Below, one piece after another: positions 3,908-62,628 of a stretch of DNA of 64,000 nt. A model generated the notes under the pieces. It was not told the origin of the DNA. It saw nothing but the letters and a program-made list of their open reading frames with translations, and searched no databases. Source of the stretch: a virus; IMG/VR virus record IMGVR_UViG_3300045141_000143, positions 4,061-68,060 of that record. The stretch is one strand, 5' to 3'. Within the stretch, counting starts at the first letter, position 1; each line of letters opens with the position of its first letter. The position numbers and the translations under genes are program-made.

Positions 3908-4207
3908 ATGAGCGACGAACTATTGGTAGACATCGGCATGATGCTGGCGGCGCTACCCCGCCCAATGAACTCGGACGAAGTGAGACGGTTCGCAAACGAT
4001 CTGGTGAACAAATCCGTGGATCAATCGCCTCTGTCCATCGCCTCACTGGCTTGGATCGAACTAGAACCGCGAGGAGGCAACCTGGACCAAGCTGAAGCTC
4101 TGGCGACAGCCGTCCTCAATGTCGTGGACCCGAAGAGAGGTCTCTCACTGAGTGCGGCACGAAAGATCATCGGAGCTATCTGGGCTGGCACCACGCTGAT
4201 GAAGTGA
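3908..4207 (+). CDS. Hypothetical protein
   Basis: GGAGA RBS then ATG. Confidence 0.6.
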   Translation: MSDELLVDIGMMLAALPRPMNSDEVRRFANDLVNKSVDQSPLSIASLAWIELEPRGGNLDQAEALATAVLNVVDPKRGLSLSAARKIIGAIWAGTTLMK

Positions 4208-30500: not shown

Positions 30501-31125
30501 CGCCCGATGCGACTGACCATCCTGTCGGCATTACGCCGCCCGAGTTGATCGTGCCTGCCGTGGCGCCGTTGCCAACCGAGTTGCGGACCACGTTCGTGGC
30601 GGTCACGTCGAGCGCAATCTGCCCGGTGTAGTCCTGCCGGACCACGTTGACCGGCGCTAGCTGGAGCGTGTTGTTCTGATCGAGGTATGTGCCGACTGTG
30701 GCGCGGGCGGTTGCGGTGCCGCTGAAGTTCTCCAGGAGCTTGTCGCCATAGAGGATATGCGTGTCGCGGCCGTCGGCGATCCAACCGCCATTGATGATGC
30801 TGTCGTAGAAGCCGTCGCTGTTTGCCAACTGGATGGCACCCCAGGAGGCTCCTACAGCCGAGGCGGCAGGATCGAGGTTGACCATCCCGTCGACCGCGAA
30901 CGCCTCCAGTACGCGCGGCGGGTATGGCACCGGTCCCTTCGGATCAGTCGGGCGAGTTCGATACCCCATGTCCGACGCTAGGATCTGCGTGTCGGTGTAC
31001 TGACCGCTGTCGGTCAGCGAGAGCGAGCCGTGCGCCCGCGTGCCGTGGCCTTCAGCGTAGGTCAGACCGCCATCGTTCGGCCTGCGGATGGTCTGCTCGA
31101 TCGCAAAGAAATGGGCCGTCGTCAT
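27562..31125 (-). CDS. Tail tip protein with inserted carbohydrate-binding-like domains
   Basis: Follows tape measure; Y.G.G..G..KP..G..N..P..YQV C-terminal part; repeated PQ.E.G..T.F/YIP units. Confidence 0.75.
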   Translation of the reverse strand: MTTAHFFAIEQTIRRPNDGGLTYAEGHGTRAHGSLSLTDSGQYTDTQILASDMGYRTRPTDPKGPVPYPPRVLEAFAVDGMVNLDPAASAVGASWGAIQLANSDGFYDSIINGGWIADGRDTHILYGDKLLENFSGTATARATVGTYLDQNNTLQLAPVNVVRQDYTGQIALDVTATNVVRNSVGNGATAGTINSGGVMPTGWSVASGGLAVELSIYKSGAAGAANVLRMRFHGTPTASTGSLSYGTTGSLSGLPNNAAIVQSHSMALIAGSFANVTQIVHWLALYDATATTVTVPQPNFLASITGTLTRLFRTYSTPATGNAAYATSNPSIVFYWNVGAPVDFTIDFTAPQLELGTTPTLFIPTTVGDVTRGDAGTNVIPTSDMTGAVVGTATLPSLWSVQLPGLTMQVTNIGTDTVTHYKYMDLHFTGTTTSAAGVILVADTFTVDATVGQAWCSSIYASLIGGSQSGITFQFGTREWDGTIALLGFTGDGPSPCSLNDITRARRVAPMICSHATTRYAQMTLLINIPNAWFTDFTIRLMAPQQEGGSVATSFMPTTNGPFTRSATYHLTGAPVLLNEIAKNQYVLSTQTPSVGNVNTTVTGEIPPIYGGSSVWKHVRTATGTDSNTATIGVAGLPSTGAALRASIWVWIPGSRAASKTSIAISIEGNTTAATSVAANLALTDHWQRITASATLTSGFSNTSIVLRVTPQVNGDVVYTSCWQMELNTVTSYIPPGTTITLRAADVTYTARHILTEPPYASLVPAFNGVAGPVTSDDKQVTIPLRDTSYWLERPVLRTTYGGNGQYDGTAALTGSLKPLVIGGGQGTLAIYGPVNNITPILVDPPNLIYQVCDGPILKLANLYEGGHAGGWAFAGDVADLYVGSTPAGSYRTCLARGCFQLGSTPVYAITCDVNGQTIPGSPGPVALAVAAYALTNLCGVPANLVALNGTNLAAIGAVAPLASGCAIFLAPGDAPDGITLLTRILAPAGMKLVSCRDGKLRALVLAALPPNASTLVEAALDNRNIISITPIALPAGISPTPYRMRVGYNDNYTQQTTDLSPLIDATRKQYLATPQSIQQSNSPTLFSSVTRPNDPPVITGSIVDAGPTLGALAAAQAAASQYTNLWGVRRRVYGIEVPFALGVTLEYGDVVSVTTEIGDLSGTRLGQVVGYSYRSEDASVTVRLLI

Positions 31126-41951: not shown

Positions 41952-43193
41952 TCAGTTAGGGGCCGGGAACCGGTTCAGCTGGAAGGTTCCGCCGTTCACC
42001 GTGTCGGGGTTGCACTCGAAGGTGACGTCCACCATGAGCGCCGCGCCTGGGCCGGTCGCGTTGATCTTTGCGAGAAAGACCACGTTCTGAAACGACAGGC
42101 AGTAGCTCTGTCTTGCCGCATCTTGCAGGTAGAACTGCACGTCGCCCGCAGTTTCAGCCTGGAAGACGTTGTACAGCAGGAAGTCCTTGCAGTACATCCG
42201 AAAGCTGCCGCTGCCCTGGAATGTCCCGCCAAGAATGCCGCTGGCTCCTGCTGCTCCTGCTGCGCCTGCCGATGGGCCTAGAGTGAACTCGGGTGCCGCG
42301 CCAGTGTTCTCCAAGGTGATTTGGAGCTGATCCAGATTGCCAGCGATCGTGTTCGTGGTGCCGTTGTATGTCATCCGAACATAGCCCGCGACCGGATCGA
42401 CCACGGTGCCTGCTGGCGCAGGGTTCAAGCCGCCGGTTGAGCCATCGGCTGCATTGAAGGCTTCGGATTGGGCAACGACATCGATAGCCCCGGTGAAGAA
42501 TGATCCGACGTTCGCGCCGAGCGTGATCCGCGTCACATAGCAACCGCCATAGCGCAGGAAGCCTTTGCCATCGAACTTCCGCTGCAGGAACAGCGAATGG
42601 AACGTCGTGCCGTTGGCGAGGCTCGACCCCGAGATCTGGACTTGGTTGCTGGTGAGTGAGGTCTCGGTCGTGGTCGCAACCGGTATCCCGACGAGGGTCA
42701 GGCTGGTGCCCGTGTTCACGGTGACCCGAAACCAAGTATTGTAGTTGTTGTTCACCCAGCCCGAGAGGCGGACGTACTGACCGACGAGGATGGTCGCAAA
42801 CTTCGCCGCCAGCGTTGATGTCAGCGTAAGGGTGCCAGTGCCATTCGACGCGATCGTCAGATCGGTGAGGATACTGAAGATCTGAAATGGCGGCGTGTGC
42901 GACCACTCGCCCTGACAGAGCGAGCCGAAGAAGTCGTCGTATGTGCCCCAGGACAGCGCGTAGTTGATGGTGCCACCAGCGGTCTGCTCAGTGGTGACCG
43001 CCTGCGAGACTTCGCGGGTGATGTTGATCTCGCCCGGCCGCTGCCGCGTTTTGGTGAGCGCCAGCGTGTCGCTTGTGTAGCGGATCGTGTTCCACTTTCC
43101 GCCTGGCTTCACGCCCCAGGTTGTTTCGGGGGCATATGAGAGAAGCGTTTGGTTGGCTTCGACGCCAGCCTGGTATCCTAGTGTCGCAGCCAT
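41952..43193 (-). CDS. Major tail tube protein, copy 2
   Basis: Y..E.TWGV.P..IRY.SDTL..EI..G.INY..YDDF..G.F..SG....Y. Confidence 0.82.
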   Translation of the reverse strand: MAATLGYQAGVEANQTLLSYAPETTWGVKPGGKWNTIRYTSDTLALTKTRQRPGEINITREVSQAVTTEQTAGGTINYALSWGTYDDFFGSLCQGEWSHTPPFQIFSILTDLTIASNGTGTLTLTSTLAAKFATILVGQYVRLSGWVNNNYNTWFRVTVNTGTSLTLVGIPVATTTETSLTSNQVQISGSSLANGTTFHSLFLQRKFDGKGFLRYGGCYVTRITLGANVGSFFTGAIDVVAQSEAFNAADGSTGGLNPAPAGTVVDPVAGYVRMTYNGTTNTIAGNLDQLQITLENTGAAPEFTLGPSAGAAGAAGASGILGGTFQGSGSFRMYCKDFLLYNVFQAETAGDVQFYLQDAARQSYCLSFQNVVFLAKINATGPGAALMVDVTFECNPDTVNGGTFQLNRFPAPN

Positions 43194-43220: not shown

Positions 43221-44477
43221 TTACGGGGTGTTGGTGACGTTCGGCAGGCGATCGATGATGACTGTCCCGCCCAGCGCCGCCGGGTTCGCTTCGAACGTCA
43301 TCTCGGCATAGACCGGCTGCCCTGGTCCGCCCGCGTTCATCTTCTGCATCAAGACGGCGTTGGGGAACGTGAAGGCATAGGAGTTGCCAGTGGAGCCCTG
43401 GATGATGAAGGACAGCGCTCCCGCTGTTTCGGCCTGGAACAGATTATAGTTTGTGAAGTCGTTGAAGTACATGCGGAACGAGCCCGACGCTTGGAACGTG
43501 CCGCTGAGGATGCCGACAGAGAGCTTGTTGCCGAGCGCATACTCGGGCGCCGCTGAGGTGTTCTCCAGCGTGATGGCCATCTGGTCGAGCGAGCCCACCA
43601 TTGGCTCGCCGTTCCAAAATGCGCCGACAAAGCCGCCGACCGGGTCCATGACGATGGCGGGGGCCGGAAGGTCGACGCCGCTCGATGAGTCGGCGGTTCT
43701 GTCGTCCTCATCCTTTGAGACGATGTCGATCGCGCCGGTGAAGAAGTTGCCGACAGAGCCAGACAGCGTCAGGCGCGAGACGTAGGCGCCGGGGTAAACC
43801 AGCCACAGCGTCGATGACAGCATCCGCTGGAGGAACATCGACTTGAACGTCGTCCCGTTGGTCATCGATGACGACCGGACATGCGCCAGGACGCCGGTCG
43901 GGGTTTCGGTGGCAGCGTAGATACGCTGGGGACCAGCAAGCGTGAGATGGGTGGCGTCAGTCTTGGTCAGGACGTACCACCAGCCGTTGTTCTGCGGGAC
44001 GCCGGGCGCCGCCGGGTTAACCCCGAGCAGGAAGCCGTAGAGCTTGATCCACGACCCTTGCACGACGTTCAAGAACTTGTTGGCGGTCGCTGACGACAGC
44101 ACGCAGACGGCGCCAGCCCCAGGTGTGGTGACGGTGAGCACGATGTCGCCCGCTACCCCGTTGATCGCCTGTGGGGCTTGCCAGTCCTGCTGAAGCGCCA
44201 CCATCAGGAAGTCGTCATAGACACCGTACGACATAGCGTAGTTGATCGTGCCGCCAGCGGTCTGCTGGGTGGTGACGGCTTGCGACGCCTCACGGGTTAT
44301 GTTGATTTCGCTCGGCCGCTGCCGCGTCTTGGTTTCCGCCAAAGTGTCGCTCATGTAGCGGATCGCTTTGAAATGCGGCGGTCCTGCTGGGACGACGCCC
44401 CAGGTGGACTCGACGACATACGAGATGCGGGTTTGGTTGGTCTCGATGCCCGCTTGGTAACCAAGTGTCGCGGCCAT
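43221..44477 (-). CDS. Major tail tube protein, copy 1
   Basis: Full-length paralogue of 41952-43193 (both start MAATLGYQAG). Confidence 0.82.
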   Translation of the reverse strand: MAATLGYQAGIETNQTRISYVVESTWGVVPAGPPHFKAIRYMSDTLAETKTRQRPSEINITREASQAVTTQQTAGGTINYAMSYGVYDDFLMVALQQDWQAPQAINGVAGDIVLTVTTPGAGAVCVLSSATANKFLNVVQGSWIKLYGFLLGVNPAAPGVPQNNGWWYVLTKTDATHLTLAGPQRIYAATETPTGVLAHVRSSSMTNGTTFKSMFLQRMLSSTLWLVYPGAYVSRLTLSGSVGNFFTGAIDIVSKDEDDRTADSSSGVDLPAPAIVMDPVGGFVGAFWNGEPMVGSLDQMAITLENTSAAPEYALGNKLSVGILSGTFQASGSFRMYFNDFTNYNLFQAETAGALSFIIQGSTGNSYAFTFPNAVLMQKMNAGGPGQPVYAEMTFEANPAALGGTVIIDRLPNVTNTP

Positions 44478-50265: not shown

Positions 50266-51159
50266 TTACCCTTCGCTGGTGAGAGAGAAGCCAGACACGA
50301 TCTGCGACAGCTCCTTGAGCGTCGCTTTGCGTGCTTCGGATGCCGCCTGCTCAACAGCCTCATCCCGAGGTGCTTTGAACCCGAGTTCGGCGATGGCTCG
50401 GGCTTGCGAGTGCGAGAGCTTGAACTCCTCCCGGAGCCAACTCTCGAACTCACGTATCGTCGTTGGTTTGGCCGAGTTCATGCCCATCGGCATGTCCTGG
50501 CCGGTCAGCGCCTGGTGCGCGTCCATCAGGTGCGTAAACATCTGCTGACGCTGGTCTGACGTTGGACTGTTGGCGCCTGATAGCGACTGCTGGTGCAGCT
50601 TCATGCAGGCGGCGACTGCGGTGGCCGCGCTCTCTGCATCGACGTTCTTCATGACGGTGTTCAGCGAGACGATCTTCGCCAGCTTGTTCGCCGGGTCGCG
50701 CACAACATCGACGGAGTGCAGCACCAGGTTGTTGATCGTGCGGTGCGGCTCGTCCTTCTTGCTGCTGCGGACATCACCGCCATCCGGCACGTTGAACGCT
50801 ATGGACAGCGCCTTGATCGCGCCCTCTTTCATGAGCCCATAGACACGCTGGCCGTGATCGGTGTTGAGCGCGCAGATCTTGCCCTGGCAGATCAGACCTT
50901 TTGAGTCCTCCGACATATGCGTCCACACGCCAACGGGCAGTGGGTCGCCGCCGAACTGGTAGGCGGAATGCTCCGCATACATGCCGGGCATGGTTCCTGC
51001 GGCCGTGTGCGCCGCCAGCGTCTCTTTGAAGGCGCCAGGCGCTATGACATGGCCGTACGAGTCCTGGTTGCCCGTGACGGCGCCATAACCTGTGAACACG
51101 CCTTCGGTGCCGCCGTCGAACTTGAATTCGACTGGCGTGGCGATGCGGTCGAGCAACAT
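50266..51159 (-). CDS. HK97-type prohead protease
   Basis: FTGYGAV.GN.DS..I.PGAF, P.GVW..ED.KGL, LSI.F, V..PAN. Confidence 0.93.
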   Translation of the reverse strand: MLLDRIATPVEFKFDGGTEGVFTGYGAVTGNQDSYGHVIAPGAFKETLAAHTAAGTMPGMYAEHSAYQFGGDPLPVGVWTHMSEDSKGLICQGKICALNTDHGQRVYGLMKEGAIKALSIAFNVPDGGDVRSSKKDEPHRTINNLVLHSVDVVRDPANKLAKIVSLNTVMKNVDAESAATAVAACMKLHQQSLSGANSPTSDQRQQMFTHLMDAHQALTGQDMPMGMNSAKPTTIREFESWLREEFKLSHSQARAIAELGFKAPRDEAVEQAASEARKATLKELSQIVSGFSLTSEG

Positions 51160-51169
51160 GGTCAGTCTC

Positions 51170-52453
51170 CTATTCGACCGGTGTCGTTGGATCGGTCGGC
51201 GTCTGCGTCGCCTGGAACCCAGGATCGAGCGGCTTGAGGATGCGGAACTGCGCTTCCTTGCCGAGCAGCTGGATGGGTATGAGGTTCGATTGCACGGTCA
51301 GGTCGTCGCCACCTGTGAGCGGGGCGATATTGTCGAGCGCGCGGAGTTCATTCCTCGTGCGAAGGCCGTTCTGAGCCAGGGTCTGCATCAACGCTGCGCG
51401 GCCAGCCGAGTCCGCACGCAACAACGCATCGACGTTGAATTCGGCATAATAGAGAGCCTTCTCGCCGGGGTTCAGCAGCGACATGCGGATCGACTGCTCG
51501 ATAGACTTCAGCAGCGGACGCAAGGTGTAGGTCAGGAACCAGAGATTCATCTGTTCCAACCCGGTTCCCCACGCCGTGGACTTAGACATATGGCCGATCA
51601 TCACCGGTTGAACGCCGAACCAGCGACAGATCTCCTCGACGCTGAACTCCCGCGTCGCCAGCAGCTGCGCATCATCCGGCTTGATGCCAATCGCTTCGGC
51701 TTTGATGCCGCCCTCGACGAGCGCCCAGCCGCCGCTGTTGACGGCGCCTGCGATCTTCTCGGACGTTTCAGCGATGAACCGCTTGCGCTTGTCCTCCGGC
51801 AGATACTTCTCAGACGTGAACACCATCGAAGGCCGCAGGCCGTTGCGGAAGATCGAAGCGGACGACTTGTCGGCAGCTATCGCCATCCCAAGCGTCTCTC
51901 GCGCCTGACCGACGATCGAAAGGCCATGCAGACCGTCGAAGCTATAGCCCTTGATGTGCATCACTTCGCCCTCTTGGAGCTTCGTGATCTCGCCCATCCA
52001 GGTGTAGGTGTAGGTGAGTGAGCGGTCTTCGTTCCTGACCGCCGTGAGCCGATCGGGCACCATCGGCGCAAGGGCCACGACGCGATTGCCGTTGCGCACG
52101 ATCTGAATGTAGGCGTTGCCCCACAGCAGGATGCACGCAACGACGGCCTCCCAGAACGTGACCGCCGTCATCTCAAAGTTCGGTTGGTCGTGCAGCAGCG
52201 CATAGAGCGGATGGTCGCGTGCGAGCGTGCCGCGGCCCTCGTTGTCGGCCTTGTAGACCTGGCACGGCAAGGTCGCCATCGTCTGCGCGATCAGCCGCGA
52301 GCAGGCAAAGACTGTGCCGATGGCCAGCGACGTGCGCGGCGAGACGAATTCCCCGGAGTACGTTGGTCCGCTGCCGAGCCACGCGACAAGGCGATTGTCG
52401 GTCAGACCAAGCCCTCGGGCGATGGTCGTGACCGCGTTCAGGATCATGCCCAA
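51170..52453 (-). CDS. Portal protein (HK97 family)
   Basis: V.AC..LIA..A.LP, PN..MT..FW, L.GNAY, H..G..DG..GLS, F.NG.RP, NE.R..N. Confidence 0.97.
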   Translation of the reverse strand: MGMILNAVTTIARGLGLTDNRLVAWLGSGPTYSGEFVSPRTSLAIGTVFACSRLIAQTMATLPCQVYKADNEGRGTLARDHPLYALLHDQPNFEMTAVTFWEAVVACILLWGNAYIQIVRNGNRVVALAPMVPDRLTAVRNEDRSLTYTYTWMGEITKLQEGEVMHIKGYSFDGLHGLSIVGQARETLGMAIAADKSSASIFRNGLRPSMVFTSEKYLPEDKRKRFIAETSEKIAGAVNSGGWALVEGGIKAEAIGIKPDDAQLLATREFSVEEICRWFGVQPVMIGHMSKSTAWGTGLEQMNLWFLTYTLRPLLKSIEQSIRMSLLNPGEKALYYAEFNVDALLRADSAGRAALMQTLAQNGLRTRNELRALDNIAPLTGGDDLTVQSNLIPIQLLGKEAQFRILKPLDPGFQATQTPTDPTTPVE

Positions 52454-52518
52454 TGGTTCAGCCTCCGACCCTGTGCGTTTCTGGCCCGCGCCGGGTCGAG
52501 CCGCCGTTCAGGCGAACG

Positions 52519-52764
52519 TCAGTCGGCGGCTACATTCGCGGCCGTACTGGCTCGCTCGGGTTCTCGCAGAGTGCTGGCATGTGCCTGGATCGCGTCGTTC
52601 ACTTGCCTGGAGATGTCGAGCATCAGCGGGTTGACCTCGATCCAGGGGTTCTTGGCGATGTATTGCGTGACCCGCTCCCAGGTCGCGATGGGGAGCGTGA
52701 CCATAGCCGGCCACTGCGCGACGTCTTGCGGGGGCTGCGGCTGCGGCGGCATGTTGGTGTCCAT
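52519..52764 (-). CDS. Small protein, possible fibre chaperone
   Basis: W..V..I.K.PW.EV.PL..I..Q; follows fibre gene. Confidence 0.55.
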   Translation of the reverse strand: MDTNMPPQPQPPQDVAQWPAMVTLPIATWERVTQYIAKNPWIEVNPLMLDISRQVNDAIQAHASTLREPERASTAANVAAD

Positions 52765-52777
52765 TATTTCGATCCTT

Positions 52778-55700
52778 TTAGGTAGGAGAGGTGATTTCAG
52801 CGAAGAGGTAATAGGAGCCGTTGTAGTTGTAGTTTCCCGCTGCGGTGACGGTAGCCCCGATAATGAGATCGTGGGTGTCTGGCATCGATTGCGAGTAACT
52901 ACCGATGTTCAACGTGGAGTTCTGGAGGACGGTGATGCTTGGTATGATTCTCATGCTGGTCGGCAGCGAGAACGTCGCTATGGCAGGGGTTCCTGCAACC
53001 CCATAACCGGCGAACTGGAATGTCCCCTGCTGATAATACCGCTCGCAGAGCGAACGCTCATCGAGGCGCATTTCCCACTGTGTAGCTACCGTGCCAGGTT
53101 CCAGTTGAGGCTTTAGAACAGTGCCTGCCTGGAACTCGACAACGATGTTGGTGGCTGCGGTAATACCTGTGACGGTGATAGGGCTCGCAGCATAAGTGCC
53201 GCCGTTGATCCGACCGGTTGCCGTGCCTTGCCACGAAAGAGTGTAGGTGCCGCCCTCAACGAAAACGCCCTCGACGAGTTGTTGCACTGAGCCGGAACTG
53301 ATGGTGATCGTTGCAGCAGGGTTTGTGGCGTTGAAAGTCCAGCTGTGACCGTTCACGCCACTTCGCCACATATCGAGCGACGAGACGAACGAGTAGCCCG
53401 CGCCATTATTAACCGGACTGGGCGATCCTCGTTGGTTCACTCTGAAGCTAGAGTTGATCAACCGGTTGCGATTTCCGGCTGATGGTCCACCCCCGCCTGC
53501 TGCGCCGGTGACAAATGCTGTGGTTGCCAGTTGCGTCGTGGCCGTGCCGACGGCAGCAGTTGGCGCGGTGGGTGTTCCTGTCAGGGCTGGCGACGCCAGC
53601 GGTGCCTTGAGGTTGTCGGCAGTGGTGACGAATGCTGTCGTTGCAAGCTGCGTGGTATTCGTATTGGCGACAGCAGTTGGCGCTGTCGGGACACCTGTCA
53701 GCGCTGGCGCGGCCAGCGGCGCGTAGGGCGCCAGGAGGGTCGTGAAGCCCGCGCCGCTCACCGCACCAGTTGCCGACAACGTGGTGAATGCGCCTGTGCT
53801 TGGCGTCGTGGCGCCGACAGCGGCGCCATTCAGCCCGGTGTTTGAGATCGATGCCGTTCCGCCGACAGCAAGTATGCCACTGACCAGGCAGTTGTTTGTG
53901 ACGTTCAGTGCGTAGCCGGCAGCAGTGAATGTGACGCCGCCGGTCACGTTGACGCCGCCTACGAGCGGGACGTAGGCAGCGGTCGCGGTTTGCACGAAGG
54001 ATGTGGTCGCTAGCTGCGTGGTATTTGTGTTCGCCGCAGCAGTTGGCGCTGCAGGTACTCCAGTGAACGTCGGCCCAGCTAGCAAAGCTCCACCGACACC
54101 GGTCACGTCCGCTGCGGTTAAGACGACCGCACCAGTGCGCGTGTTGAATGTGGTGACGCCAGCCGAGGCGATATCGGCGGCGGTGACGAACGCGGTGGTC
54201 GCAAGCTGCGTTGTATTTGTCCCTGGCGCAGCAGTCGGCGCGGTGGGCACACCTGTTAGAGCCGGTGCGGCCAGGGTGGCGTATAGCTGGGCCTTGACGA
54301 AGGCTGTCGTGGCGACGGTCGTGCTGTTGTCAGCGGTTGCAGCGGTTGCAGCGGTGAAGGCGCCGGTAATGTTGAGAGCGCCTGTTCCGGTAGTGGTCAG
54401 TGTCGAGACAGCGGTCGCACCAAGACCGGTCGTGAACTGGAAGGCATTGCGCGTCGTGTCACCGATGCGGACAGTGGCGGCTGGCAAGATGCTATGCGTC
54501 GCGAACAGCGCGGCGCCGCTTGACCAGATTTCCCCGGAATATCCTTGCGGTATCGAGAAGCTATTCGTGCCCGCCGCGAAGATGACATTGAAGCCGCCCG
54601 TTCCGCCGTGCCGCACGACCCAACTCTTGTGCGCTGCATTGACCGGGATGGTGACGGTGCGATCAGCGGTCAGCACGCCCGTGGCACTGATGACCCTTTC
54701 GTTCGCATTCGCGGTCGTCCACGTCGCGTCAGCGTCAGCGATGTTGTTCGCGATGTAGCCCGCCGCCTCGCGCGCAACGAACAGCACGGTCGCGAGGCTG
54801 GTGTCCTCATCGCCAACCGCTTGCGTCACGCCGACTGTGCCGGTCGGAAGCGAGGGAGCGCCAGTGAACACTGGAGACGCGAGCAGAGCACCGCCGACAC
54901 CAGTCACGTCAGCGGCGGTTAAGACTACCGCGCCAGACCTCGTGTTGAACGTGACGACTCCCGCGGCGGCGATGTCCGCTGCGGTCACGAAGGCAGTGGT
55001 TGCCAGGGTCGTATTATTTGTGCCGGCGACCTGGGTAATCCCGACCGCACCAGTCGGCAGAGACGGCGCCCCCGAAAAGACCGGGCTCGCGAGGGGCGCG
55101 TAGGGCGCCAGGAGCGTGGTGAAACCTGCCCCGCTCACCGCACCGGTTGCTGCCAGCGTCGTGAAAGAGCCTGTGCTGGGCGTCGTGGCGCCTACAGCGG
55201 TGGCATTGATGCCAGTGGCGGTGATCGAGGCGACATCGATGGCGTTGACGTTGAACCAGTGCGCGGCGAGGTTCGGCGCGAGGTAGTTCAAACGGTTGGC
55301 GGTGACGTTGAAGCCGTAGGTCGTGGAGTAGAGCGCAATGTGACGCGAGAGATCGGTGATGCCGCCGGGTGCGACCTGGGTGTTAATGAAAATGCCACGA
55401 TAGAAGGTAAACAGGCCAGTGGCGCGCGTGATGCGAGCGTGGGTGGCGATGAGCGCGCCAGTGTCGCTGTAGGCATTGAAGTCGAGGTCGGTGCCTGCGT
55501 TAGAGCCGTCTTGTGGCGTTGCTGTCAGGTTGCCGCCGACGACCCAATTGAGAATACCGGAGGTGAGCGCGCGGAAACTACGCCAAGTCCCAGTCGCTCC
55601 ATCCGCATAGTAGCTCAAACACTGGATGTATCCTGCGTCGGCAAGCGTGATGACTGGGTTGGGTGCGGCCTGACTGCCAGTGGACCATTTGAGGCCAGTT

Positions 55701-56992
55701 GGTGTGTCGTTGACGTTGTCATAGTAGAGATTGCGGTTCGCTGTGGCGACGAAGCCGATGCTCTGATTGACGTTCATCCGAATAGCGTTCGCGGTGTGCG
55801 TGCTATTCAGAATGATGCCGTATTGTGTCGTGGCAGCGCTTAGAATGAGTTGCTGGACGCCGCTGCCACTCAGCGTGCCCGTGATCTGGATGCCGCCGGT
55901 AATGACGCCGCCTGCGAGTGGCAGATAGAGCGCCGCTGCGGCGGCAACAAATCCGGTCGTTGCTAGTTGAGTCGTATTCGTGCCTGGGGCGGCAGTTGGC
56001 GCTGCAGGTACGCCTGTGAACGTCGGTCCAGCGAGCAAGGCGCCGCCGACGCCGGTCACGTCCGCTGCGGTCAAGACGACCGCACCGACACGCGTGTTGA
56101 AGCTCAGAACCGCAGCGGCGTTCGCTGCCTGGACGAATGCCGTGGTCGCCAGCGTCGTCGTGTTCGTGCCAGCGACCTGTGTGACCCCGATAGTGCCAGT
56201 CGGCAGCGATGGCGCCCCCGAGAACACTGGGCTCGCCAATGGCGCGTAGGGCGCCAGGAGCGTCGTGAAGCCCGCGCCGCTGACGACACCAGTTGCAGCG
56301 AGGGTGGTGAACGAGCCGCTGGCCGGCGTCGTGACGCCTACAGCGGTGGCATTCAACCCGGTCGAGGTGATCGAGGCGACATCGTTGCCTGCACTGACGA
56401 AGAAGTGGGAGCCACCGACATGGTTGAGCCGCCCGCTGGTGACCGAGAAACCGTAGGCCGTGCCCCAAAGAGCTATGTGACTTGAAAGATCACTTGGGCT
56501 GGCACCAAGCACGCTGCCAAAGGCAAGACCGCCATTGCCGACGTTAATCTGGCCAGTGGAGCGGTTGATCCGCAGCGCATACGTGCCGATGAGAACGCCA
56601 GTGTCATCGTAGGGTGAGAGGTCGAGGTCACCCCCGAGGTTCGCTCCGCTCTCAGCGGTGTTGGTCGTGTGCCAGCCCCAGCGGTTTATACCCGCCGTCT
56701 GCCAATAGATCGCGCGCCCCGTGTTCGTAGCCGCGCCGTTCAGATACAGCGCCTGCGGGAGCGTGTTGATGCCGAGTGTCAGCGAGCCGGTGAGAATACC
56801 CCCGGTGGTTGGAAGGAAGGCACCAGGTCCAGCAATCGGAAAGATCGATGTCGCTTGGTTCGCGGTGTTGCCGCCGCCGTAATAGAGGATATTGGTCTGC
56901 TCGTTGTATGCGAGTTCAGCGGCAGCGAGTGTTGGTGGTGCGCCTGCGGCTCCTCCGACAGCGCGGCGCTTGATGCGAAAAGTATCGGCCAT
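52778..56992 (-). CDS. Long fibre protein (distal segment) with C-terminal receptor-binding domain
   Basis: RIKRR..LA.AELAYNE N-terminus; repeated SP.FTG.P.APT..TTQLATT.FV; C-terminal domain shared with 25691-26779. Confidence 0.85.
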   Translation of the reverse strand: MADTFRIKRRAVGGAAGAPPTLAAAELAYNEQTNILYYGGGNTANQATSIFPIAGPGAFLPTTGGILTGSLTLGINTLPQALYLNGAATNTGRAIYWQTAGINRWGWHTTNTAESGANLGGDLDLSPYDDTGVLIGTYALRINRSTGQINVGNGGLAFGSVLGASPSDLSSHIALWGTAYGFSVTSGRLNHVGGSHFFVSAGNDVASITSTGLNATAVGVTTPASGSFTTLAATGVVSGAGFTTLLAPYAPLASPVFSGAPSLPTGTIGVTQVAGTNTTTLATTAFVQAANAAAVLSFNTRVGAVVLTAADVTGVGGALLAGPTFTGVPAAPTAAPGTNTTQLATTGFVAAAAALYLPLAGGVITGGIQITGTLSGSGVQQLILSAATTQYGIILNSTHTANAIRMNVNQSIGFVATANRNLYYDNVNDTPTGLKWSTGSQAAPNPVITLADAGYIQCLSYYADGATGTWRSFRALTSGILNWVVGGNLTATPQDGSNAGTDLDFNAYSDTGALIATHARITRATGLFTFYRGIFINTQVAPGGITDLSRHIALYSTTYGFNVTANRLNYLAPNLAAHWFNVNAIDVASITATGINATAVGATTPSTGSFTTLAATGAVSGAGFTTLLAPYAPLASPVFSGAPSLPTGAVGITQVAGTNNTTLATTAFVTAADIAAAGVVTFNTRSGAVVLTAADVTGVGGALLASPVFTGAPSLPTGTVGVTQAVGDEDTSLATVLFVAREAAGYIANNIADADATWTTANANERVISATGVLTADRTVTIPVNAAHKSWVVRHGGTGGFNVIFAAGTNSFSIPQGYSGEIWSSGAALFATHSILPAATVRIGDTTRNAFQFTTGLGATAVSTLTTTGTGALNITGAFTAATAATADNSTTVATTAFVKAQLYATLAAPALTGVPTAPTAAPGTNTTQLATTAFVTAADIASAGVTTFNTRTGAVVLTAADVTGVGGALLAGPTFTGVPAAPTAAANTNTTQLATTSFVQTATAAYVPLVGGVNVTGGVTFTAAGYALNVTNNCLVSGILAVGGTASISNTGLNGAAVGATTPSTGAFTTLSATGAVSGAGFTTLLAPYAPLAAPALTGVPTAPTAVANTNTTQLATTAFVTTADNLKAPLASPALTGTPTAPTAAVGTATTQLATTAFVTGAAGGGGPSAGNRNRLINSSFRVNQRGSPSPVNNGAGYSFVSSLDMWRSGVNGHSWTFNATNPAATITISSGSVQQLVEGVFVEGGTYTLSWQGTATGRINGGTYAASPITVTGITAATNIVVEFQAGTVLKPQLEPGTVATQWEMRLDERSLCERYYQQGTFQFAGYGVAGTPAIATFSLPTSMRIIPSITVLQNSTLNIGSYSQSMPDTHDLIIGATVTAAGNYNYNGSYYLFAEITSPT

Positions 56993-57006
56993 TTATAGTT
57001 ACTGCG

Positions 57007-58947
57007 TCAGAATGTGCCACCGTCCAGGGTCACTCCATCAATGGTCCCGCCAGTGATGGCAACCGCAGACGCAGCCTGCGTCGACATGGTCCCGAGGCCA
57101 GTGATGTCGGTGTTCGGTATCGTGGCGATTGCAGTGAACGCCGCCGCCGCATTGCCCTTCACGTAGCCGGTCAGCGTGACAGCGCCAGTGCCGCCGTGGT
57201 TGACCGCGATCGTCGTCGCATTCCACGTCCCCGCAGAGACGGCACCCAGCGTCGTGATCGAGGCCTGCCCCACGTACGCCGGATCGATGTCGATGCTGTC
57301 GGGGTTGACCAGGATGCGATTGGCGGTGCCGATAGCGTCGATCTGGTTGCCGGTCTTCGTGAGCCCGCCGCCAGCGATGATCTGGCCAGCGCCGCTGAAC
57401 TGGACAAATGTGATCGGTGTCGTGCCAAGCGTTCCGCCAGGATCACTGGTGCACACGTAGCCGTTGTCGGCGTTGGCCGTGCCAAGCTCAACGAAAATAT
57501 AGGTAGCTGGAATCTCGGCCCATGTGTCCATGTCGGTCGTGCGCGTCCAGGCGCCGACTGCGGCGGCGTAAATGCCGTTGTTCTGCGCGAGCGTCTGATC
57601 CTTGACCAACACACGGTCGCCGGCGACGGCGGTGATACCGTCGATCACCAGCAAGCCACTCAGCGCTGCCAGGTTTGTCGTCGTCGCCATGCGGCAAGGG
57701 TTGCTGACGTTCAGGCCTTGAACCACACCATCGACGTAGTTCTTGGTCGCCGCGTCTTGCGGACTCGTAGGGTCGAGCAGCGCGGTGATTTTGCGATTGC
57801 CCCAGGCGACATCGGCCGTCGGTGCCTGGAACTGATCCTGGCGCAGCCCTTTCACGAATGCCGTGGTCGCAAGGGTTGTCGATGAGTCCGCATTTGAAGG
57901 TGTTGGCGCTGCAGGTACGCCTGTGAACGTCGGGCTGGCGATCGGAGCGTAAAGTTGCGCCTTCACGAATGCCGTAGTTGCAAGCGAAACCGACGAGTCG
58001 GCTGTGGCCGGCGTTGGTCCGGTCGGATTGCCAGTAAAGATCGGCGATACGGTCGGCGCACGCGAGGTATCCGTTGCGTGAACGTGATCTGCGCGAGCGA
58101 AGGTGGTGCCGACACCAACTGCGACAACGCCATCCATGACGGGGTTGGTCGAGGATGGCAGCGGAACGCTCGCAACAGTCGCGTAGGTCTGCGCTTTGAC
58201 GAATGCCGTGGTGGCTATCGACGTGTCGTTGTCCGCTGTGGCAGGAGTCGGCGCTTGGGGGTCACCTGTGAAGACTGGCGACGCCAGCAAAGCGCCGCCC
58301 ACACCAGTGACGTCCGCTGCGAGCAGAACGACCGAACCGCTTCTCGTATTGAAAGTCTGAACGCCGGTTGAAGCCGCAGCCGCCTGCACGAATGCCGTCG
58401 TTGCTAGTTGCGTCGTATTTGTGCCGGGAACAGCAGTTGGTCCAGCGGGTATTCCAGTGAACGTCGGAGACGCCAGGGGAGCACCGCCGGCACCTGTCAC
58501 GTCGGCTAACAGCAGAGTTACCGCACCCGCGCGTGTGTTGAAAGTCTGAACGCCTGCCGCCGCCGCTGCCAAAGCGACAAATGCGGTGGTCGCTATTTGA
58601 GTCGTGCTCGTCCCTGGGCTGGCAGTTGGCGCGAGAGGTACGCCTGTCAGACTTGGCGACGCGAGCGGTGCGCGCGAGGTGTCGCTTGCATGGACGTGAT
58701 CCGCGCGAGCCCATGTCGTAGCGGTGCCAATCGCAACCGCACCGTTCATAATTGGGTTGGTGGACGCGGCCAGACCAGGTCCGCCAATGCCGAGGATTAC
58801 CGATGCAGTGCCGCCCGACCCGCCAGTGCCCTCGCCATAATACAGAATGTGGTCTTGCTCGTTGTAGGCAAGCTCGGCATTCGCGAGCGATGGCGGTGCG
58901 CCGACGAGCCCGGTGACGCGGCGTTTGATCCGGATGACGTCGGTCAT
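57007..58947 (-). CDS. Fibre protein (middle segment)
   Basis: RIKRR..AELAYNE N-terminus; ARADHVH; DAATKNYVD; GDRVLVKDQT..NGIY..W.R..D; ends LDGGTF. Confidence 0.85.
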   Translation of the reverse strand: MTDVIRIKRRVTGLVGAPPSLANAELAYNEQDHILYYGEGTGGSGGTASVILGIGGPGLAASTNPIMNGAVAIGTATTWARADHVHASDTSRAPLASPSLTGVPLAPTASPGTSTTQIATTAFVALAAAAAGVQTFNTRAGAVTLLLADVTGAGGAPLASPTFTGIPAGPTAVPGTNTTQLATTAFVQAAAASTGVQTFNTRSGSVVLLAADVTGVGGALLASPVFTGDPQAPTPATADNDTSIATTAFVKAQTYATVASVPLPSSTNPVMDGVVAVGVGTTFARADHVHATDTSRAPTVSPIFTGNPTGPTPATADSSVSLATTAFVKAQLYAPIASPTFTGVPAAPTPSNADSSTTLATTAFVKGLRQDQFQAPTADVAWGNRKITALLDPTSPQDAATKNYVDGVVQGLNVSNPCRMATTTNLAALSGLLVIDGITAVAGDRVLVKDQTLAQNNGIYAAAVGAWTRTTDMDTWAEIPATYIFVELGTANADNGYVCTSDPGGTLGTTPITFVQFSGAGQIIAGGGLTKTGNQIDAIGTANRILVNPDSIDIDPAYVGQASITTLGAVSAGTWNATTIAVNHGGTGAVTLTGYVKGNAAAAFTAIATIPNTDITGLGTMSTQAASAVAITGGTIDGVTLDGGTF

Positions 58948-59570
58948 TAGAAGCTCCCTCCGTCAAGCACTTGCGACGACCAGTCCTCGAGATCGGTCGT
59001 GTAGAGCAGCACGTCGCCAACCTTGGCCGCGACGCTCGTCACCAGATCCGGGTGAACTGAGAAGCCGATCGCCTGCTCGACGAACTGGGTGGTGGCGATC
59101 TGTGTCGAGTTGCTACCGGCCGTCGGTGTCGGCGCGGTGGGCACGCCGACCAGTGCCGGCGAGTTTAGCGGCGCATAAGGCGCAAGCAGGCCGAGCGCAC
59201 TCGCCCACTGATTGTTGAGCCGACCGTACACGAGGCCTGTCGCCGGGGCATCGGGGATGCCCGATTGCCACGCCGCAATAGCGTCCACCATGACGGCTGT
59301 CGGCGGGGGTGCGATGACATCGACCGTGATCGGATCAGGCAACTCCACATCGACGTTTGGCGTCGGCAGCGGCGCAGGTGTGTCAACAACGACGACCGGC
59401 GGTGCAGCGACGACATCGACGCTCAGAGGCGGCTGCGGACCAGGCAGATCGACCTCGATGGCCGGCACCGTCGGCAGCGTCACGTCGAGAGTGAAGCCGT
59501 CAGCCGCGACCGTGACGATCTGAACCGGCGTGCCGCTATCTACATCGACGGATACGGTGTGATCGCTCAT
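58947..59570 (-). CDS. Short fibre linker with foldon-like motif
   Basis: V-D-V/Pro repeats; GIPDAPATGLVYGRLNNQW; ends LDGGSF. Confidence 0.75.
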   Translation of the reverse strand: MSDHTVSVDVDSGTPVQIVTVAADGFTLDVTLPTVPAIEVDLPGPQPPLSVDVVAAPPVVVVDTPAPLPTPNVDVELPDPITVDVIAPPPTAVMVDAIAAWQSGIPDAPATGLVYGRLNNQWASALGLLAPYAPLNSPALVGVPTAPTPTAGSNSTQIATTQFVEQAIGFSVHPDLVTSVAAKVGDVLLYTTDLEDWSSQVLDGGSF

Positions 59571-59959
59571 ATCGGGCGCCCCGGAACGATGGAGGGCTGC
59601 GCGGCTAGCGTTCCGACGTTGGTCGAGTCAGTGACATCCATCGTCACGCTCACGCTGCCAAGCAGGATCGTCTGCACGTCACCATTCGGATAGGTCAATT
59701 GGAGATCCCATGTGCCGCCCGTCTTTGGCAGCCCCTGGCTCTTCGCGGTCGTTATCACCGCAAGGATGATGTTCGGCATCTGGACGGTCAGATCGAGCGA
59801 CGTGATGAGGGTGCCGCCTGCCGCAGAGCGTATCTCGGCCTTCGGGATGACCGCCGTCAGATCGGCCGGGACGGTCTTCGCTGGATCTTGCCAGAGCGTG
59901 AATTGCCAACGATAGGAATCGCCGTGGTAGATCGAGATGTTCAGCGTGCCAGGCGTCAC
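59567..59959 (-). CDS. BppU-N-like Ig anchor domain protein
   Basis: I..GD.Y..F..P.DLT....AEIR..WDLQLT..G.V.T.L.G.V.V..DVT. Confidence 0.7.
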   Translation of the reverse strand: MTPGTLNISIYHGDSYRWQFTLWQDPAKTVPADLTAVIPKAEIRSAAGGTLITSLDLTVQMPNIILAVITTAKSQGLPKTGGTWDLQLTYPNGDVQTILLGSVSVTMDVTDSTNVGTLAAQPSIVPGRPI

Positions 59960-60213
59960 TGCTTGGCCCCGCCCGGCGGCACCGTGGTCTCAATGTCATC
60001 AACGGTTGAGCTTGCGGCGTTCCTGTGCTCGACCCACTCGGCGCCGCATGTGTCGCATCGCTTGGTGGTCGAGAAGGTGTTCGGGTCCGAGTTCGTCATG
60101 ACGCCGTTGCCATCGTGGACCGGCGTCCACGCAAGCTGCGTCATGACCTGACTGACGACCGCGATCCGGCACTCTGCCGCGTCGCCAGGGCAGTCGGGAT
60201 GACTGTGCGCCAT
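59956..60213 (-). CDS. Small Cys-rich protein
   Basis: C..C..TQLAW.PV.D..G..DPN..C..C..W. Confidence 0.65.
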   Translation of the reverse strand: MAHSHPDCPGDAAECRIAVVSQVMTQLAWTPVHDGNGVMTNSDPNTFSTTKRCDTCGAEWVEHRNAASSTVDDIETTVPPGGAKQ

Positions 60214-60225
60214 TGATCCGTTCCT

Positions 60226-61971
60226 TTAGGAAGTGACCGGACTTTCGAGGAAGCCGTCGATGCCTTCGAGGCCGTCGTCGATCATCGACTGGCCGACGCA
60301 CATGATGAGGCTCGTGATGCCGTCGATCCTGCTGACGCTGTGCTTCTTCGATGGCATCCGGTTGTCGTTTTCGTAGGTGAGGACGTGAAGGTTCGACGCC
60401 ATCCACGCCAAGACCTCGTTGTCGCCGTGGTCTAGCTGCTCGGATAGCAGCATGGCCTCGAACTGTTTGGTCGGTGCGGAGTAGAAGCGGACGCCCTGGT
60501 TGAACTGAAAGATCGGAAGCCCGGCGTTATCCAATGAGACGGCGAGCTGCATCGCGTTCCACGGGTCGTAAGCGATGCTGATGGGCTGCGCTGTTCGGCA
60601 ATCTTCCATGACGGCAGCCTGGATCTCGGAATGGTCAATGACGTTGCCCTCCGTCGTCTCGATCAGGCCCTCACTGATCCATCGCCGGTACTGCACCTGG
60701 TCGCGGTCGGTCTTCGCCTCGACGGTATCGGACGGCATCCAGAAGCGGGGCACGACCTTCCAGCGCGTCTCCTCGCCGATCGGCGGGTACAGCTTGACCC
60801 AGGCGGTCAGATCGACGCGGGACGACAGGTCGATGGCGCCGAAGAAGTGCCGGTCCATCAGTTCCGCGGGATCGAACGGGCCTCCGCTGTTTCGCCGCCA
60901 GACATCCATGTCGATTGCGCGCGTGGCGTCGCTGGTTCGGACGTTTAGTCGCAGCCGTTTGAAGGCTACGAGGGCAGGAGGTGAGCGCGACGCCTTCAAC
61001 GCCTGCCGCCGCATGTCGTCCATCTTGACCGAAACGTGCAGGTTGGGATTGGCCTTGATCCACACCTTCGGGTCGTCCCAACGATCCCCCTTGTCGAGCG
61101 TTGCGATGTAGGAAAAGTAGCTGTCGTCCTTAATGACGCCTTCGGCCACACCCATCGCGTAGGCATTTTCCGCCGCGTAGACGGTCTCCGTCGCGTCATC
61201 GCCGGCCGTCGTGATGATCCACAACAGCGGCTGGCGGCGTGAGCCCATCGCCGTGTCGAGGACATCGAGCACTGCACGCGAGCGGTGCCGGTGCAGCTCG
61301 TCGATCACGATGACATGCGGGTTGAGGCCGTCGAGTGTTCGCTCATCGGACGACAGCGCGACGAAACTCGACAGCGTCTCGTCCACCGCGAGGACTCTGG
61401 TGAGAACCTTGACCTCGCGCGATAGCATCGGTGATCGGAGCACCATGCGGCGTGCTTCCTCGAACACCAGCCGCGCCTGATCCTTTTTCGTTGCGGCACT
61501 GAATACTTCGGAGCCGGGCTCTTTGTCAGCGACGAGGCCCTTCAGCGCTATCGCCGCAGCGTCCGTCGTCTTGCCGTTCTTCCTCGCAACCTCGACATAG
61601 GCCGTGCGGAAACGCCGCAGCCCGTCATTTCGCAGCCAGCCGAACACCGATCCGCGGATGAACTTCTGCCACGCCTCAAGCTTGACCGGTCGGCCCGCCC
61701 ACTCCCCTTTCGAGTGCAGCAGGAAGTCGTTGAAGGCGATGGCATGAGCCGCAACGTCGGGGCGCCAGGTCAGGCCTCGCTTGTGGCCATCAGCCAGATC
61801 GCGGATGTGCCGCTCGCAGGTGAGGCGCACCAGGCGCCCGGTGACTATCTTCCCGGTGCAGACATCCCAGGCATAGGCGCTGACGGGATCTTCGCTAGTG
61901 GACGGCCTCCGTGCTGGGAGCGCGAGCGAGGTATTGCTGGAGCGTCTCCTGGCCTTGTCCTTCTGAGCCAT
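60226..61971 (-). CDS. terL: Terminase large subunit
   Basis: L..WQ.F, RRFR.A..E.ARKNGKT, DELH, ITTAG, W.KANP.L, DLS..D, YDPWNA, RIDG. Confidence 0.97.
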   Translation of the reverse strand: MAQKDKARRRSSNTSLALPARRPSTSEDPVSAYAWDVCTGKIVTGRLVRLTCERHIRDLADGHKRGLTWRPDVAAHAIAFNDFLLHSKGEWAGRPVKLEAWQKFIRGSVFGWLRNDGLRRFRTAYVEVARKNGKTTDAAAIALKGLVADKEPGSEVFSAATKKDQARLVFEEARRMVLRSPMLSREVKVLTRVLAVDETLSSFVALSSDERTLDGLNPHVIVIDELHRHRSRAVLDVLDTAMGSRRQPLLWIITTAGDDATETVYAAENAYAMGVAEGVIKDDSYFSYIATLDKGDRWDDPKVWIKANPNLHVSVKMDDMRRQALKASRSPPALVAFKRLRLNVRTSDATRAIDMDVWRRNSGGPFDPAELMDRHFFGAIDLSSRVDLTAWVKLYPPIGEETRWKVVPRFWMPSDTVEAKTDRDQVQYRRWISEGLIETTEGNVIDHSEIQAAVMEDCRTAQPISIAYDPWNAMQLAVSLDNAGLPIFQFNQGVRFYSAPTKQFEAMLLSEQLDHGDNEVLAWMASNLHVLTYENDNRMPSKKHSVSRIDGITSLIMCVGQSMIDDGLEGIDGFLESPVTS

Positions 61972-62419
61972 GCGTGGATGATCCGTTCAGCGCGTCGCCT
62001 CCGAGCGTGAGGCCAACTCGCGGGCGTGCGGTCGGCGAGAAGCCCAGTTCCGCCGCAAGCTTCGACATGATGAGCGCCTGACGATTGATGATCGGGAGGA
62101 ACGGCGACTGCACCATCTGGCGGGTGTTCGGCGTCCGCACTACGAGGCCCCTCGCGCCGAGCGAAGCCTGCATGACGACGGCGCGACGGTGGTAGCACTG
62201 AGCGACGACCCAGCACTCAAGCACGCCGGCGTCGATCATCTTGAGCATTCCGGGCGGGGCGTGCTGCAGGGCGTAGGCCCACGCCGCGCGCTGGTCCTCG
62301 TCGAAGTGCGCTGGCGCGGCCGCCAGTGGGCCTTCGGGCTTCGGCTCGTGGCGATTGATCGGTTCCGTCGAGCGATGCAGTTCCTTGAGGACCGTCGGCT
62401 TCGGTTTGCGGCCCCTCAT
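61895..62419 (-). CDS. terS: Terminase small subunit (P27 family)
   Basis: MRGRKPKPT.LK..EPKP..SP.L.I..ELGFSP.AR. Confidence 0.93.
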   Translation of the reverse strand: MRGRKPKPTVLKELHRSTEPINRHEPKPEGPLAAAPAHFDEDQRAAWAYALQHAPPGMLKMIDAGVLECWVVAQCYHRRAVVMQASLGARGLVVRTPNTRQMVQSPFLPIINRQALIMSKLAAELGFSPTARPRVGLTLGGDALNGSSTHGSEGQGQETLQQYLARAPSTEAVH

Positions 62420-62628
62420 CGCAGCGGAAGCACCCGCACATAGCCCACGCCATCGAGCAGCACGACCAGCACGATCAGCAGGCAGATCAGCACGACGATG
62501 ACGCGGGAGATTTTCCGCATCGGCTCTTGCACACCCAACTGGTCAATGGCCCAAAGGAGGACGGCACCGACCAGCACGATGAACAGCACGTAGATGAGCA
62601 GGTAGAGCAGGGAGATCATCGCCGCCAC
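62416..62628 (-). CDS. Small two-TM membrane protein
   Basis: LLYLLIYVL..VLLWAI..P..KI..VIVVLI. Confidence 0.75.
   Translation of the reverse strand: MAAMISLLYLLIYVLFIVLVGAVLLWAIDQLGVQEPMRKISRVIVVLICLLIVLVVLLDGVGYVRVLPLR

Follow-up and report, generated by a model that had tools for sequence, protein, structure and literature searches.

A candidate serial fibre cassette between the terL and portal genes of a viral genome, with a predicted plug-and-socket joint

We analyzed a window of 64,000 nucleotides (positions 4,061 to 68,060 of IMG/VR virus record IMGVR_UViG_3300045141_000143), which is most of this record of 68,060 base pairs, rated 100% complete. In the window, the terL and portal genes are separated by an insert of about 7.7 kb, and our results suggest that this insert is probably a portable fibre cassette that builds one long, serially assembled trimeric fibre. 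The late genes lie on the minus strand in the order terL, P0005, P0004, P0003, P0002, P0001, P0006, and portal (Table 1). P0004 is a putative anchor, P0003 an adaptor, P0002 a middle fibre, and P0001 a distal fibre. The adaptor and the middle fibre end in DGGxF (the plug), and the middle and distal fibres start with an RIKRR domain (the socket). A preliminary description of this DNA had proposed a snap-together fibre of several segments between terL and portal. The open reading frame (ORF) calls and translations reproduced all of its coordinates and sequences, and the proposal is supported by synteny statistics and by one strong structure prediction.

Adjacency of plug and socket genes

Only two of the 484 ORFs of at least 50 residues in the window ended in D[GCM]G.[FYW]. 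Both are in the insert. The record has just two genes for an RIKRR domain, and each of these two ORFs precedes one of them. The translations agree with the preliminary description that a DGGxF gene is followed by an RIKRR gene, that the first segment has no socket, and that the last has no plug.

We retrieved 77 viral loci with residues 1–50 of P0002 only. In these loci, 127 of 4357 ORFs of at least 50 residues ended in D[GCMA]G.[FYW], all of them on the strand of the RIKRR gene. With a strict regular expression, 106 of the 127 directly preceded an RIKRR-type start (81) or an IKxKR..GELAxN-type start (25); with looser scoring, both N-terminal motif elements were found immediately downstream at 102 of 113 distinct junctions. 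The exceptions were mostly variant N-termini, insertions of HNH endonuclease genes (L003, L022, and L072), and chain ends (L030–L038).

Since this sample was ascertained through the socket and held near-duplicates, the reverse search was also done. IMG/VR was scanned for DNA encoding DGGNF plus a stop codon in GC-rich codons, which gave 68 loci. There were 57 true gene ends, 56 of them with room downstream, and the next start was of the RIKR[RS] type in 48 and of the Mtd_N type in two (50 of 56); six had neither. None of the 11 out-of-frame matches preceded a socket gene. Enrichment of the adjacency had been set beforehand as a test of the proposed fibre, and both searches show it: the adjacency of plug and socket is beyond chance. 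A scan of genome contigs with one narrow pattern gave three loci.

At three unrelated loci an HNH endonuclease gene separates the plug gene from the socket gene, inserted precisely at their junction (L003 5535–6005, L022 5568–6005, and L072 5559–5981; phrog_3377 and phrog_374, E 1e-21 to 1e-24). These endonucleases may be homing into the conserved junction.

Among adaptors only the last five residues are constant, and the bodies are collagen-like or of the YGRxNxxW, KxYVxNH, or GDxL...WxN type. The plug is strictly C-terminal. It ends 114 of 119 P0002-like proteins as D-x-G-x-F, and among 267 proteins there was no DGGxF at an internal position with RIKRR after it. An ancestral gene fusion or read-through was considered and rejected, since no fused form was seen. 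One adaptor, ending in DGGNY (L055/L059 5636–5989), itself starts with a Mtd/HylP-like N-terminus (..VQFRRGT..GEVGYE), which suggests a further joint upstream.

The socket is widespread and has no annotation. A length-limited search with residues 1–60 of P0002 matched 853 proteins at E ≤ 1e-3, nearly all of them named "hypothetical", and the socket profile had 1533 matches among 1.84 billion representatives of 50%-identity clusters. In 149 of the best 150 of these 1533 representatives, the socket began at residue 1–4. A tblastn search of 50,697 phage records with the 50-residue socket returned two phages only, even at E ≤ 10; this is due to the short query and is not proof of rarity.

The preliminary description had likened this N-terminus to the attachment domain of the Mtd_N/hyaluronidase type. 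The hhalign comparison of the RIKRR profile (A2) with the IKxKR..GELAxN N-termini that follow RIKRR proteins in chains (A4) gave a probability of 97.4% and E 1.2e-11 over 52 columns, and 12 of the 24 N-termini in A4 matched Pfam Mtd_N (best 2.7e-4). The monomer model of the socket (predicted local distance difference test, pLDDT, 82) had HylP (6x3m, 2c3f, 2dp5) and Mtd (1yu0-4) as its top PDB folds, with E 0.8–4.5 and query template modelling scores (TMq) of 0.30–0.45. By profile comparison, the RIKRR socket thus appears to be homologous to bona fide Mtd_N-type N-termini. The likeness therefore stood, with weak fold matches, while membership in the Pfam family itself did not.

Plug type and socket subtype seem to covary. 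RIKRR-a sockets, the kind found in P0002 (LANAEL..YYGEGTGG), were preceded by GGN (19), GGS (6), AGN (1), and GGT (1), so that DGG[NS]F plugs preceded them in 25 of 27 distinct junctions. Mtd_N-type tips were preceded by GGT (16), GGS (7), CGT (5), CGN (1), GGY (1), and GGA (1), and never by GGN. These counts fit a fixed order from adaptor to middle fibre to distal fibre.

The predicted joint and its alternatives

The joint between P0002 and P0001 was modelled as a 3+3 complex of the C-terminal 80 residues of P0002 and the N-terminal 70 residues of P0001, each with an alignment of 22 rows. The interaction prediction score from aligned errors (ipSAE) was 0.90, 0.91, and 0.91, and the best of three controls reached 0.51. 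The partners had pLDDT of at least 94, and contacts were 100% concordant between runs. In calibration, 58 of 80 solved complexes and 2 of 110 mismatched pairs attain the mark of the tool; these figures come from single-chain pairs and are rough here. Neither the socket profile (A2) nor the plug profile (A1) matched any PDB sequence at E ≤ 10, which makes recall of a solved homologous complex unlikely; with the Mtd_N-type profile (A4) the matches were spurious only.

In the model, residues 632–633 and 636–646 of P0002 (66–67 and 70–80 in the job) would contact residues 1–11, 19–20, 23, 25, and 28 of P0001. The predicted register is parallel (73:3, 75:5, 77:7, and 79:9 in job numbering), and the plug Asp, D642 (job residue 76), would meet R6 of the socket. 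The predicted interface holds the invariant columns D642, G644, and F646 of the plug (A1) and M1, R6, R9, R10, P19, and A28 of the socket (A2). The other test set beforehand was an interface of the DGGxF tail with the RIKRR domain, and such an interface is predicted. The form of docking differs from the one first proposed: contact of tail and socket was predicted as expected, with about 11 C-terminal residues strand-paired to residues 1–11 and not as a six-residue peptide in a pocket.

The proposed fibre would be built in the following way. P0004, of the immunoglobulin (Ig)-fold p132/LtfC kind, would anchor the adaptor P0003, whose short N-terminal β-strands would insert into it, as those of LtfA do in DT57C. 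The segments would join head to tail, trimer onto trimer, in the order P0004, P0003 (DGGSF), P0002 (socket...DGGTF), and P0001 (socket...tip domain). At each joint the last ~11 residues (...x-D-G-G-x-F-COOH) would run as strands parallel to the first ~10 of the next trimer (M-x-D-x-x-R-I-K-R-R), where the plug Asp would face the first Arg of the socket, both of them invariant. The residue next to the C-terminal Phe (Asn or Ser in adaptors, Thr in fibres) covaries with the socket subtype, and this could fix the order; P0002 carries both ends, and such matching could keep it from self-polymerising. We infer the P0004–P0003 contact, the order of the segments, and the role of the tip.

Several points weigh against a serial fibre. 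A recognisable socket gene was lacking after six of the 56 gene ends with DGGNF and at about 11 of the 113 junctions, the L030–L038 group ends in FDCGVF with nothing recognisable downstream, and the 77-locus sample has the ascertainment and near-duplicates mentioned above. The counts of plug and socket subtypes are not corrected for relatedness. Pfam Mtd_N (PF18454) was not reached by P0001 or P0002 (E ≤ 0.01) nor by any of 22 RIKRR N-termini at E ≤ 1, and the fold matches of the socket to HylP and Mtd are non-significant (E about 1, none at E ≤ 0.001). In BPP-1, the fibre gene before mtd (Bbp9) ends in DLGGIA and not in DGGxF. In the complex prediction, a control with a substitute for chain 1 still reached 0.51 with 138 contacts, so that the modelled socket trimer attracts partners; the job, with its two homotrimers and separate alignments, is unlike the calibration set of the tool. 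It covers the P0002–P0001 joint only, of three proposed contacts. Binding at this joint is thus predicted; the structural support is one prediction, and all of the support is computational.

A branched arrangement, in which both RIKRR proteins dock on the C-terminus of the adaptor or on the anchor ring and the DGGTF end of P0002 serves otherwise, is rather unlikely. The two sockets of the window are close paralogues, and this also counts against a serial fibre, as their sequences are compatible with branching. Branched receptor-binding systems are well known (LtfB on LtfA, and CBA120 tailspikes on one another, in the accessible text of the sources), and only one joint was covered by the prediction. 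That joint, however, is exactly the one from the C-terminus of P0002 to the N-terminus of P0001. In addition, plug type (Asn/Ser versus Thr) follows socket subtype and gene order, and the plug retained by 114 of the 119 mid-position proteins would be needless for a branch tip.

The conserved ends could also be signals for folding or assembly: DGGxF would cap a trimeric β-structure or recruit a chaperone, the N-terminal domain would nucleate trimerisation, and neighbours would share these ends only through the clustering of fibre genes. Both elements are located where caps and nuclei of trimers are expected, the small genes P0005 and P0006 accompany the cassette, and an unrelated chain 1 scored 0.51 in the control. 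We judge this improbable, because the order is directional, with the plug gene immediately upstream of the socket gene; distal proteins have no plug and first proteins no socket; and the adaptors have unrelated folds, some of them collagen-like, with only the last five residues in common. It is very improbable that conservation acts on the DNA, with the junction serving as a recombination linker for cassette swaps and the encoded termini making no contact. This would agree with the very different genomic places of the cassette, with the insertion of HNH endonuclease genes right at the junction (L003, L022, and L072), and with the exchange of a tip domain between the L012 distal fibre and the 362-residue tail fibre of the window. 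What is conserved, however, is the protein sequence, over synonymous codons and among proteins of 20–60% identity, the intergenic spacing ranges from −4 to +99 nucleotides, and the invariant residues map to a confident predicted interface. Recombination at conserved anchors is moreover compatible with a protein joint and is no true alternative to it.

Putative anchor, cassette genes, and possible site of attachment

The fold of P0004 points to an anchor of the T5 type. Its AlphaFold2 model (pLDDT 91.9) had as its top four Foldseek matches in the PDB the DT57C baseplate chains 8hqz_T and 8hqz_Q and the T5 tail tip chains 7qg9_J and 7qg9_L (E 4e-8 to 7e-7; template modelling scores 0.62–0.69). 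These chains have about 137–140 residues and are taken to be LtfC and p132 by their length and by the weak match of P0004 to Pfam LtfC (PF23926), which at E 1.1e-4 and 23.1 bits was under the 27-bit cut-off of the family. P0004 also matched phrog_1084 (2.2e-14). It is predicted to be a single-domain Ig-like β-sandwich with the fold of DT57C LtfC and T5 p132. The preliminary description had called it a BppU-N-like Ig domain. The Ig fold held, and the accessible text of the T5 study relates the p132 fold to the N-terminus of BppU (PMC10038345); p132/LtfC-like is the better name.

In DT57C and T5, according to the accessible parts of the two papers, a dodecamer of LtfC or p132 encircles a ring of the tube paralogue and holds the lateral fibres via strand augmentation by the fibre N-termini (PMC10713586, PMC10038345). 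Homologues of P0004 were found directly upstream of an adaptor at 25 hits. The 21 adaptors downstream of LtfC-like genes are built alike, with many strands at the N-terminus, a stalk of the collagen-like or fibre kind, and a DGGNF end.

Table 1. Positions in the window of the cassette genes, their plug and socket elements, and the flanking genes
Feature	Position	Strand	Evidence
terL, upstream flank, 581 residues	60226..61971	-	Pfam TerL_ATPase 1.5e-39, TerL_nuclease 2.8e-42; phrog_9
P0005, Cys-rich protein of 85 residues (CxxxxxxC...CxxC), first insert gene	59956..60213	-	no Pfam or PHROG family
P0004, putative p132/LtfC-like Ig-fold anchor, 130 residues, GTG start	59567..59959	-	predicted fold and weak Pfam LtfC match
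P0003, putative adaptor, 207 residues, end ...QVLDGGSF	58947..59570	-	translation
Plug 1, DGGSF-COOH of P0003	58950..58964	-	translation
P0002, putative middle fibre, 646 residues, start MTDVIRIKRR..LANAELAYNEQ, end ...TLDGGTF	57007..58947	-	translation; phrog_9625, phrog_11518, phrog_2647
Socket 1, RIKRR/Mtd_N-like domain, P0002 residues 1–45	58813..58947	-	shared by 853 database proteins
Plug 2, DGGTF-COOH of P0002	57010..57024	-	complex-model interface; D642, G644, F646 invariant in alignment A1
P0001, putative distal fibre, 1404 residues, start MADTFRIKRR..LAAAELAYNEQ, end ...AEITSPT, no plug	52778..56992	-	PHROG tail-fibre families
Socket 2, RIKRR domain, P0001 residues 1–45	56858..56992	-	complex-model interface; invariant columns in alignment A2
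P0001 C-terminal domain, residues 1165–1404	52781..53500	-	no Pfam or PHROG match
P0006, 81 residues, last insert gene	52519..52764	-	no family; homologue of 76% identity at the same place in L012
Portal, downstream flank	51170..52453	-	Pfam Phage_portal 2.7e-101

The genes of the insert are tightly packed, either 12–14 nucleotides apart or overlapping (TAATG at P0003/P0002, GTGA at P0005/P0004). No Pfam or NCBIfam family was found for P0001, P0002, P0003, P0005, or P0006. A promoter and terminator scan of positions 51000–62500 found sites no more frequent than in shuffles and none on the coding strand, and so the insert was treated as co-transcribed with the late genes.

P0003 has about eight short xVDVx strands with Pro-rich linkers in residues 1–100, one fibre repeat, and the C-terminal GDVL...W...LDGGSF; its residues 100–194 matched PHROG tail-fibre repeats. 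P0002 consists of the socket, fibre repeats, a domain in residues 355–593, and the plug, and it matched a tail fibre in the PDB (9k09, 9.9e-9). Its residues 355–593 matched phrog_2647 (head decoration, 2.5e-40) and phrog_11518 (tail fibre, 2.3e-41) over the same stretch, and residues 420–585 matched the "Capsid decoration protein" 9nx3 (3.6e-6). This domain of the head-decoration type is embedded in a fibre that bears both socket and plug. The "head decoration" label is common to tail-fibre families too and does not settle where the fibre is located.

P0001 has the socket, a long body of repeats, and a globular C-terminal domain, which is presumed from its position to be the receptor-binding tip. 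The ESM Atlas clusters nearest to this domain are viral hypothetical proteins (score 0.95), and a lead at 0.89 was a cluster with CBM_4_9 in 12% of its members. Residues 43–159 (window 56516–56866, minus strand) matched the "Cell wall surface anchor family protein" 8ojn (E 5.8e-6) and appear to be a fibre domain that is also present in a bacterial surface protein. The C-terminal 230 residues of the 362-residue tail fibre encoded elsewhere in the window (25691–26779, minus strand) were 46% identical to the tip of the L012 distal cassette fibre (L012 11151–11831). It seems that tip domains are exchanged between the fibre at the tail end and that of the cassette.

Two small genes that were not part of the preliminary description, P0005 and P0006, bracket the fibre genes and are conserved alongside the cassette in L012 and L018. 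A P0005 homologue occupies the matching position in L012 and L018 (76% and 53% identical, respectively), and in L020 one follows the chain; P0005 is possibly a zinc ribbon. Both proteins could be assembly factors.

Downstream of portal are the genes for prohead protease, major capsid protein, head-tail adaptor, tail terminator, and two Phage_tube_2 tail-tube paralogues. These paralogues (43221–44477 and 41952–43193, minus strand) are adjacent and 48% identical, and both matched the "Major tail structural protein" 8xan; one of them may form a p140-like ring beneath a collar. Beyond them are ORFs of 3069, 1187, and 258 residues and the 362-residue tail fibre. The first of these (31122–40331, minus strand) lies after the tail-tube genes and two small ORFs and had no Pfam match; by position it is the tape measure, for which it would be unusually long.

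terL adjoins portal in Burkholderia phage BgVeeders33, the closest cultured relative by terL (39.5% identity). Two metagenomic relatives (L012 and L018, with terL 73–76% identical) share the insert and its gene order, placed between terL and p81. In other loci the cassette was found between portal and a capsid gene (L060), between portal and protease (L068), after a capsid gene (L045, L075, and L022), and between P2-type baseplate genes (L077). The four-part cassette of Ralstonia phage PY059YO380 follows baseplate genes, and that of Synechococcus phage S-CBS2 includes gp050 (...SGGSF), gp051 (RIKKR...IDGGTF), and gp052 (Mtd_N-type). Upstream of ten LtfC-like genes we found portal (five), capsid or protease-capsid (two), baseplate wedge, tail collar fibre, and an unassigned gene (one each), and LtfC-like genes occur in Mu-like, P2-like, and other contexts. 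The varied placement among lineages suggests that the cassette is mobile among late operons.

In S-CBS2, gp051 (L154 8001–9125) carries an RIKKR socket and an IDGGTF plug and is yet annotated as a "head decoration protein". With gp050 and gp052 it completes a chain, and the annotation is probably wrong.

The preliminary description had suggested that the fibre is perhaps on the head or neck on account of gene position. Position alone was rejected as a reason to put it on the head, since in L077 and PY059YO380 the cassette lies between or after baseplate genes. The fold of P0004, the build of the adaptor, and the two tube paralogues argue for attachment at a tail-tip collar. The cassette is often beside portal or capsid genes and the relatives of P0004 form a 12-fold ring, so a neck or portal-proximal collar is as likely. 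Attachment at the capsid is improbable. A broader reading is less likely than not: DGGxF-COOH and the Mtd_N-like socket would be a general, orthogonally coded connector, with Asn/Ser or Thr ahead of the last Phe paired to socket subtypes, by which phages would assemble interchangeable segments into fibres in a set order; the cassette with its Ig-fold anchor would be mobile on sipho-, myo-, and podo-like virions, and the anchor may be a 12-fold neck collar. If it is true, these would be neck fibres of a kind not yet described.

Significance and comparison with known fibre systems

Fibres determine which bacteria a phage infects. If confirmed, the daisy-chain would be of use for annotation and for fibre engineering. 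If a tail of five residues and a socket of 45 suffice, they would be a natural reusable part for swapping receptor-binding tips. The order of a gene with a DGGxF end and a gene with an RIKRR or Mtd_N start would give an annotation rule that marks adaptors, middle segments, and tips. Such a rule would reach proteins now labelled "hypothetical" or mislabelled "head decoration", as about 1,500 clusters at 50% identity carry the socket. Anchoring by p132/LtfC would extend beyond T5-like phages to many unrelated phages. Cultured carriers of the chain are S-CBS2 and PY059YO380.

Fibres of several proteins, branched fibres, anchoring by the N-terminus, and the Mtd_N domain are already known. In a literature search that left supplements and subscription papers outside, we found no description of a repeated connector from DGGxF to an Mtd_N-like domain, nor of a p132/LtfC anchor beyond T5-like phages. 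Among the papers listed by a search with the strings DGGNF, DGGTF, and RIKRR, none concerned phages.

The closest likeness of the anchor is to the lateral fibres of T5 and DT57C (p132 = LtfC, pb1/LtfA, LtfB). P0004 shares with them an Ig-fold anchor of the same predicted fold, and as with P0003, the gene after the anchor there encodes, in the accessible accounts, a fibre protein whose N-terminus is rich in strands. This first fibre protein in turn carries another (LtfB on LtfA), as is proposed for the cassette (accessible text of PMC10713586). The two Phage_tube_2 paralogues of the window recall pb6 and p140. In contrast to T5, the window phage has a record of 68 kb and head genes of the HK97 type, and P0004 is below the Pfam cut-off for LtfC. 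The cassette genes lie between terL and portal, and the joint of DGGxF with an Mtd_N-like domain is absent from the accessible accounts of both papers. The available text of the T5 study treats p132 and p140 as a landmark of T5-like phages only (PMC10038345).

Mtd_N (PF18454) occurs in BPP-1 Mtd and in HylP, the hyaluronidases of streptococcal prophages. Like the RIKRR socket, it is a small trimer domain at the N-terminus of a distal receptor-binding protein. Unlike these tips, the RIKRR domain is present on middle segments too, and the solved Mtd_N structures are of isolated proteins without a partner. BPP-1 is the founder of Mtd_N; it was rejected as a precedent for the plug because of the end of Bbp9 given above. 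Between its terminase gene and the gene at the portal position (annotated "head-tail adaptor") BPP-1 has three genes (L153 22762–24092), one annotated "short tail fiber protein".

The long tail fibre of T4 (gp34-gp35-gp36-gp37) consists of several products of consecutive genes joined end to end. The cassette likewise has consecutive genes whose products would be joined end to end; no homology was seen. The principle of end-to-end fibres of several proteins is also found in the accessible introduction of RBPseg. Unlike in T4, the joints of the cassette would be one repeated, interchangeable connector instead of unique interfaces, and no monomeric hinge protein is evident. In the anchor-branch systems of Klebsiella phages, a conserved N-terminal peptide docks on the first receptor-binding protein. 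As is proposed for the cassette, they have a short terminal docking element that permits modular swaps. Unlike the proposed cassette fibre, these systems are branched and use another docking element and another receiving domain.

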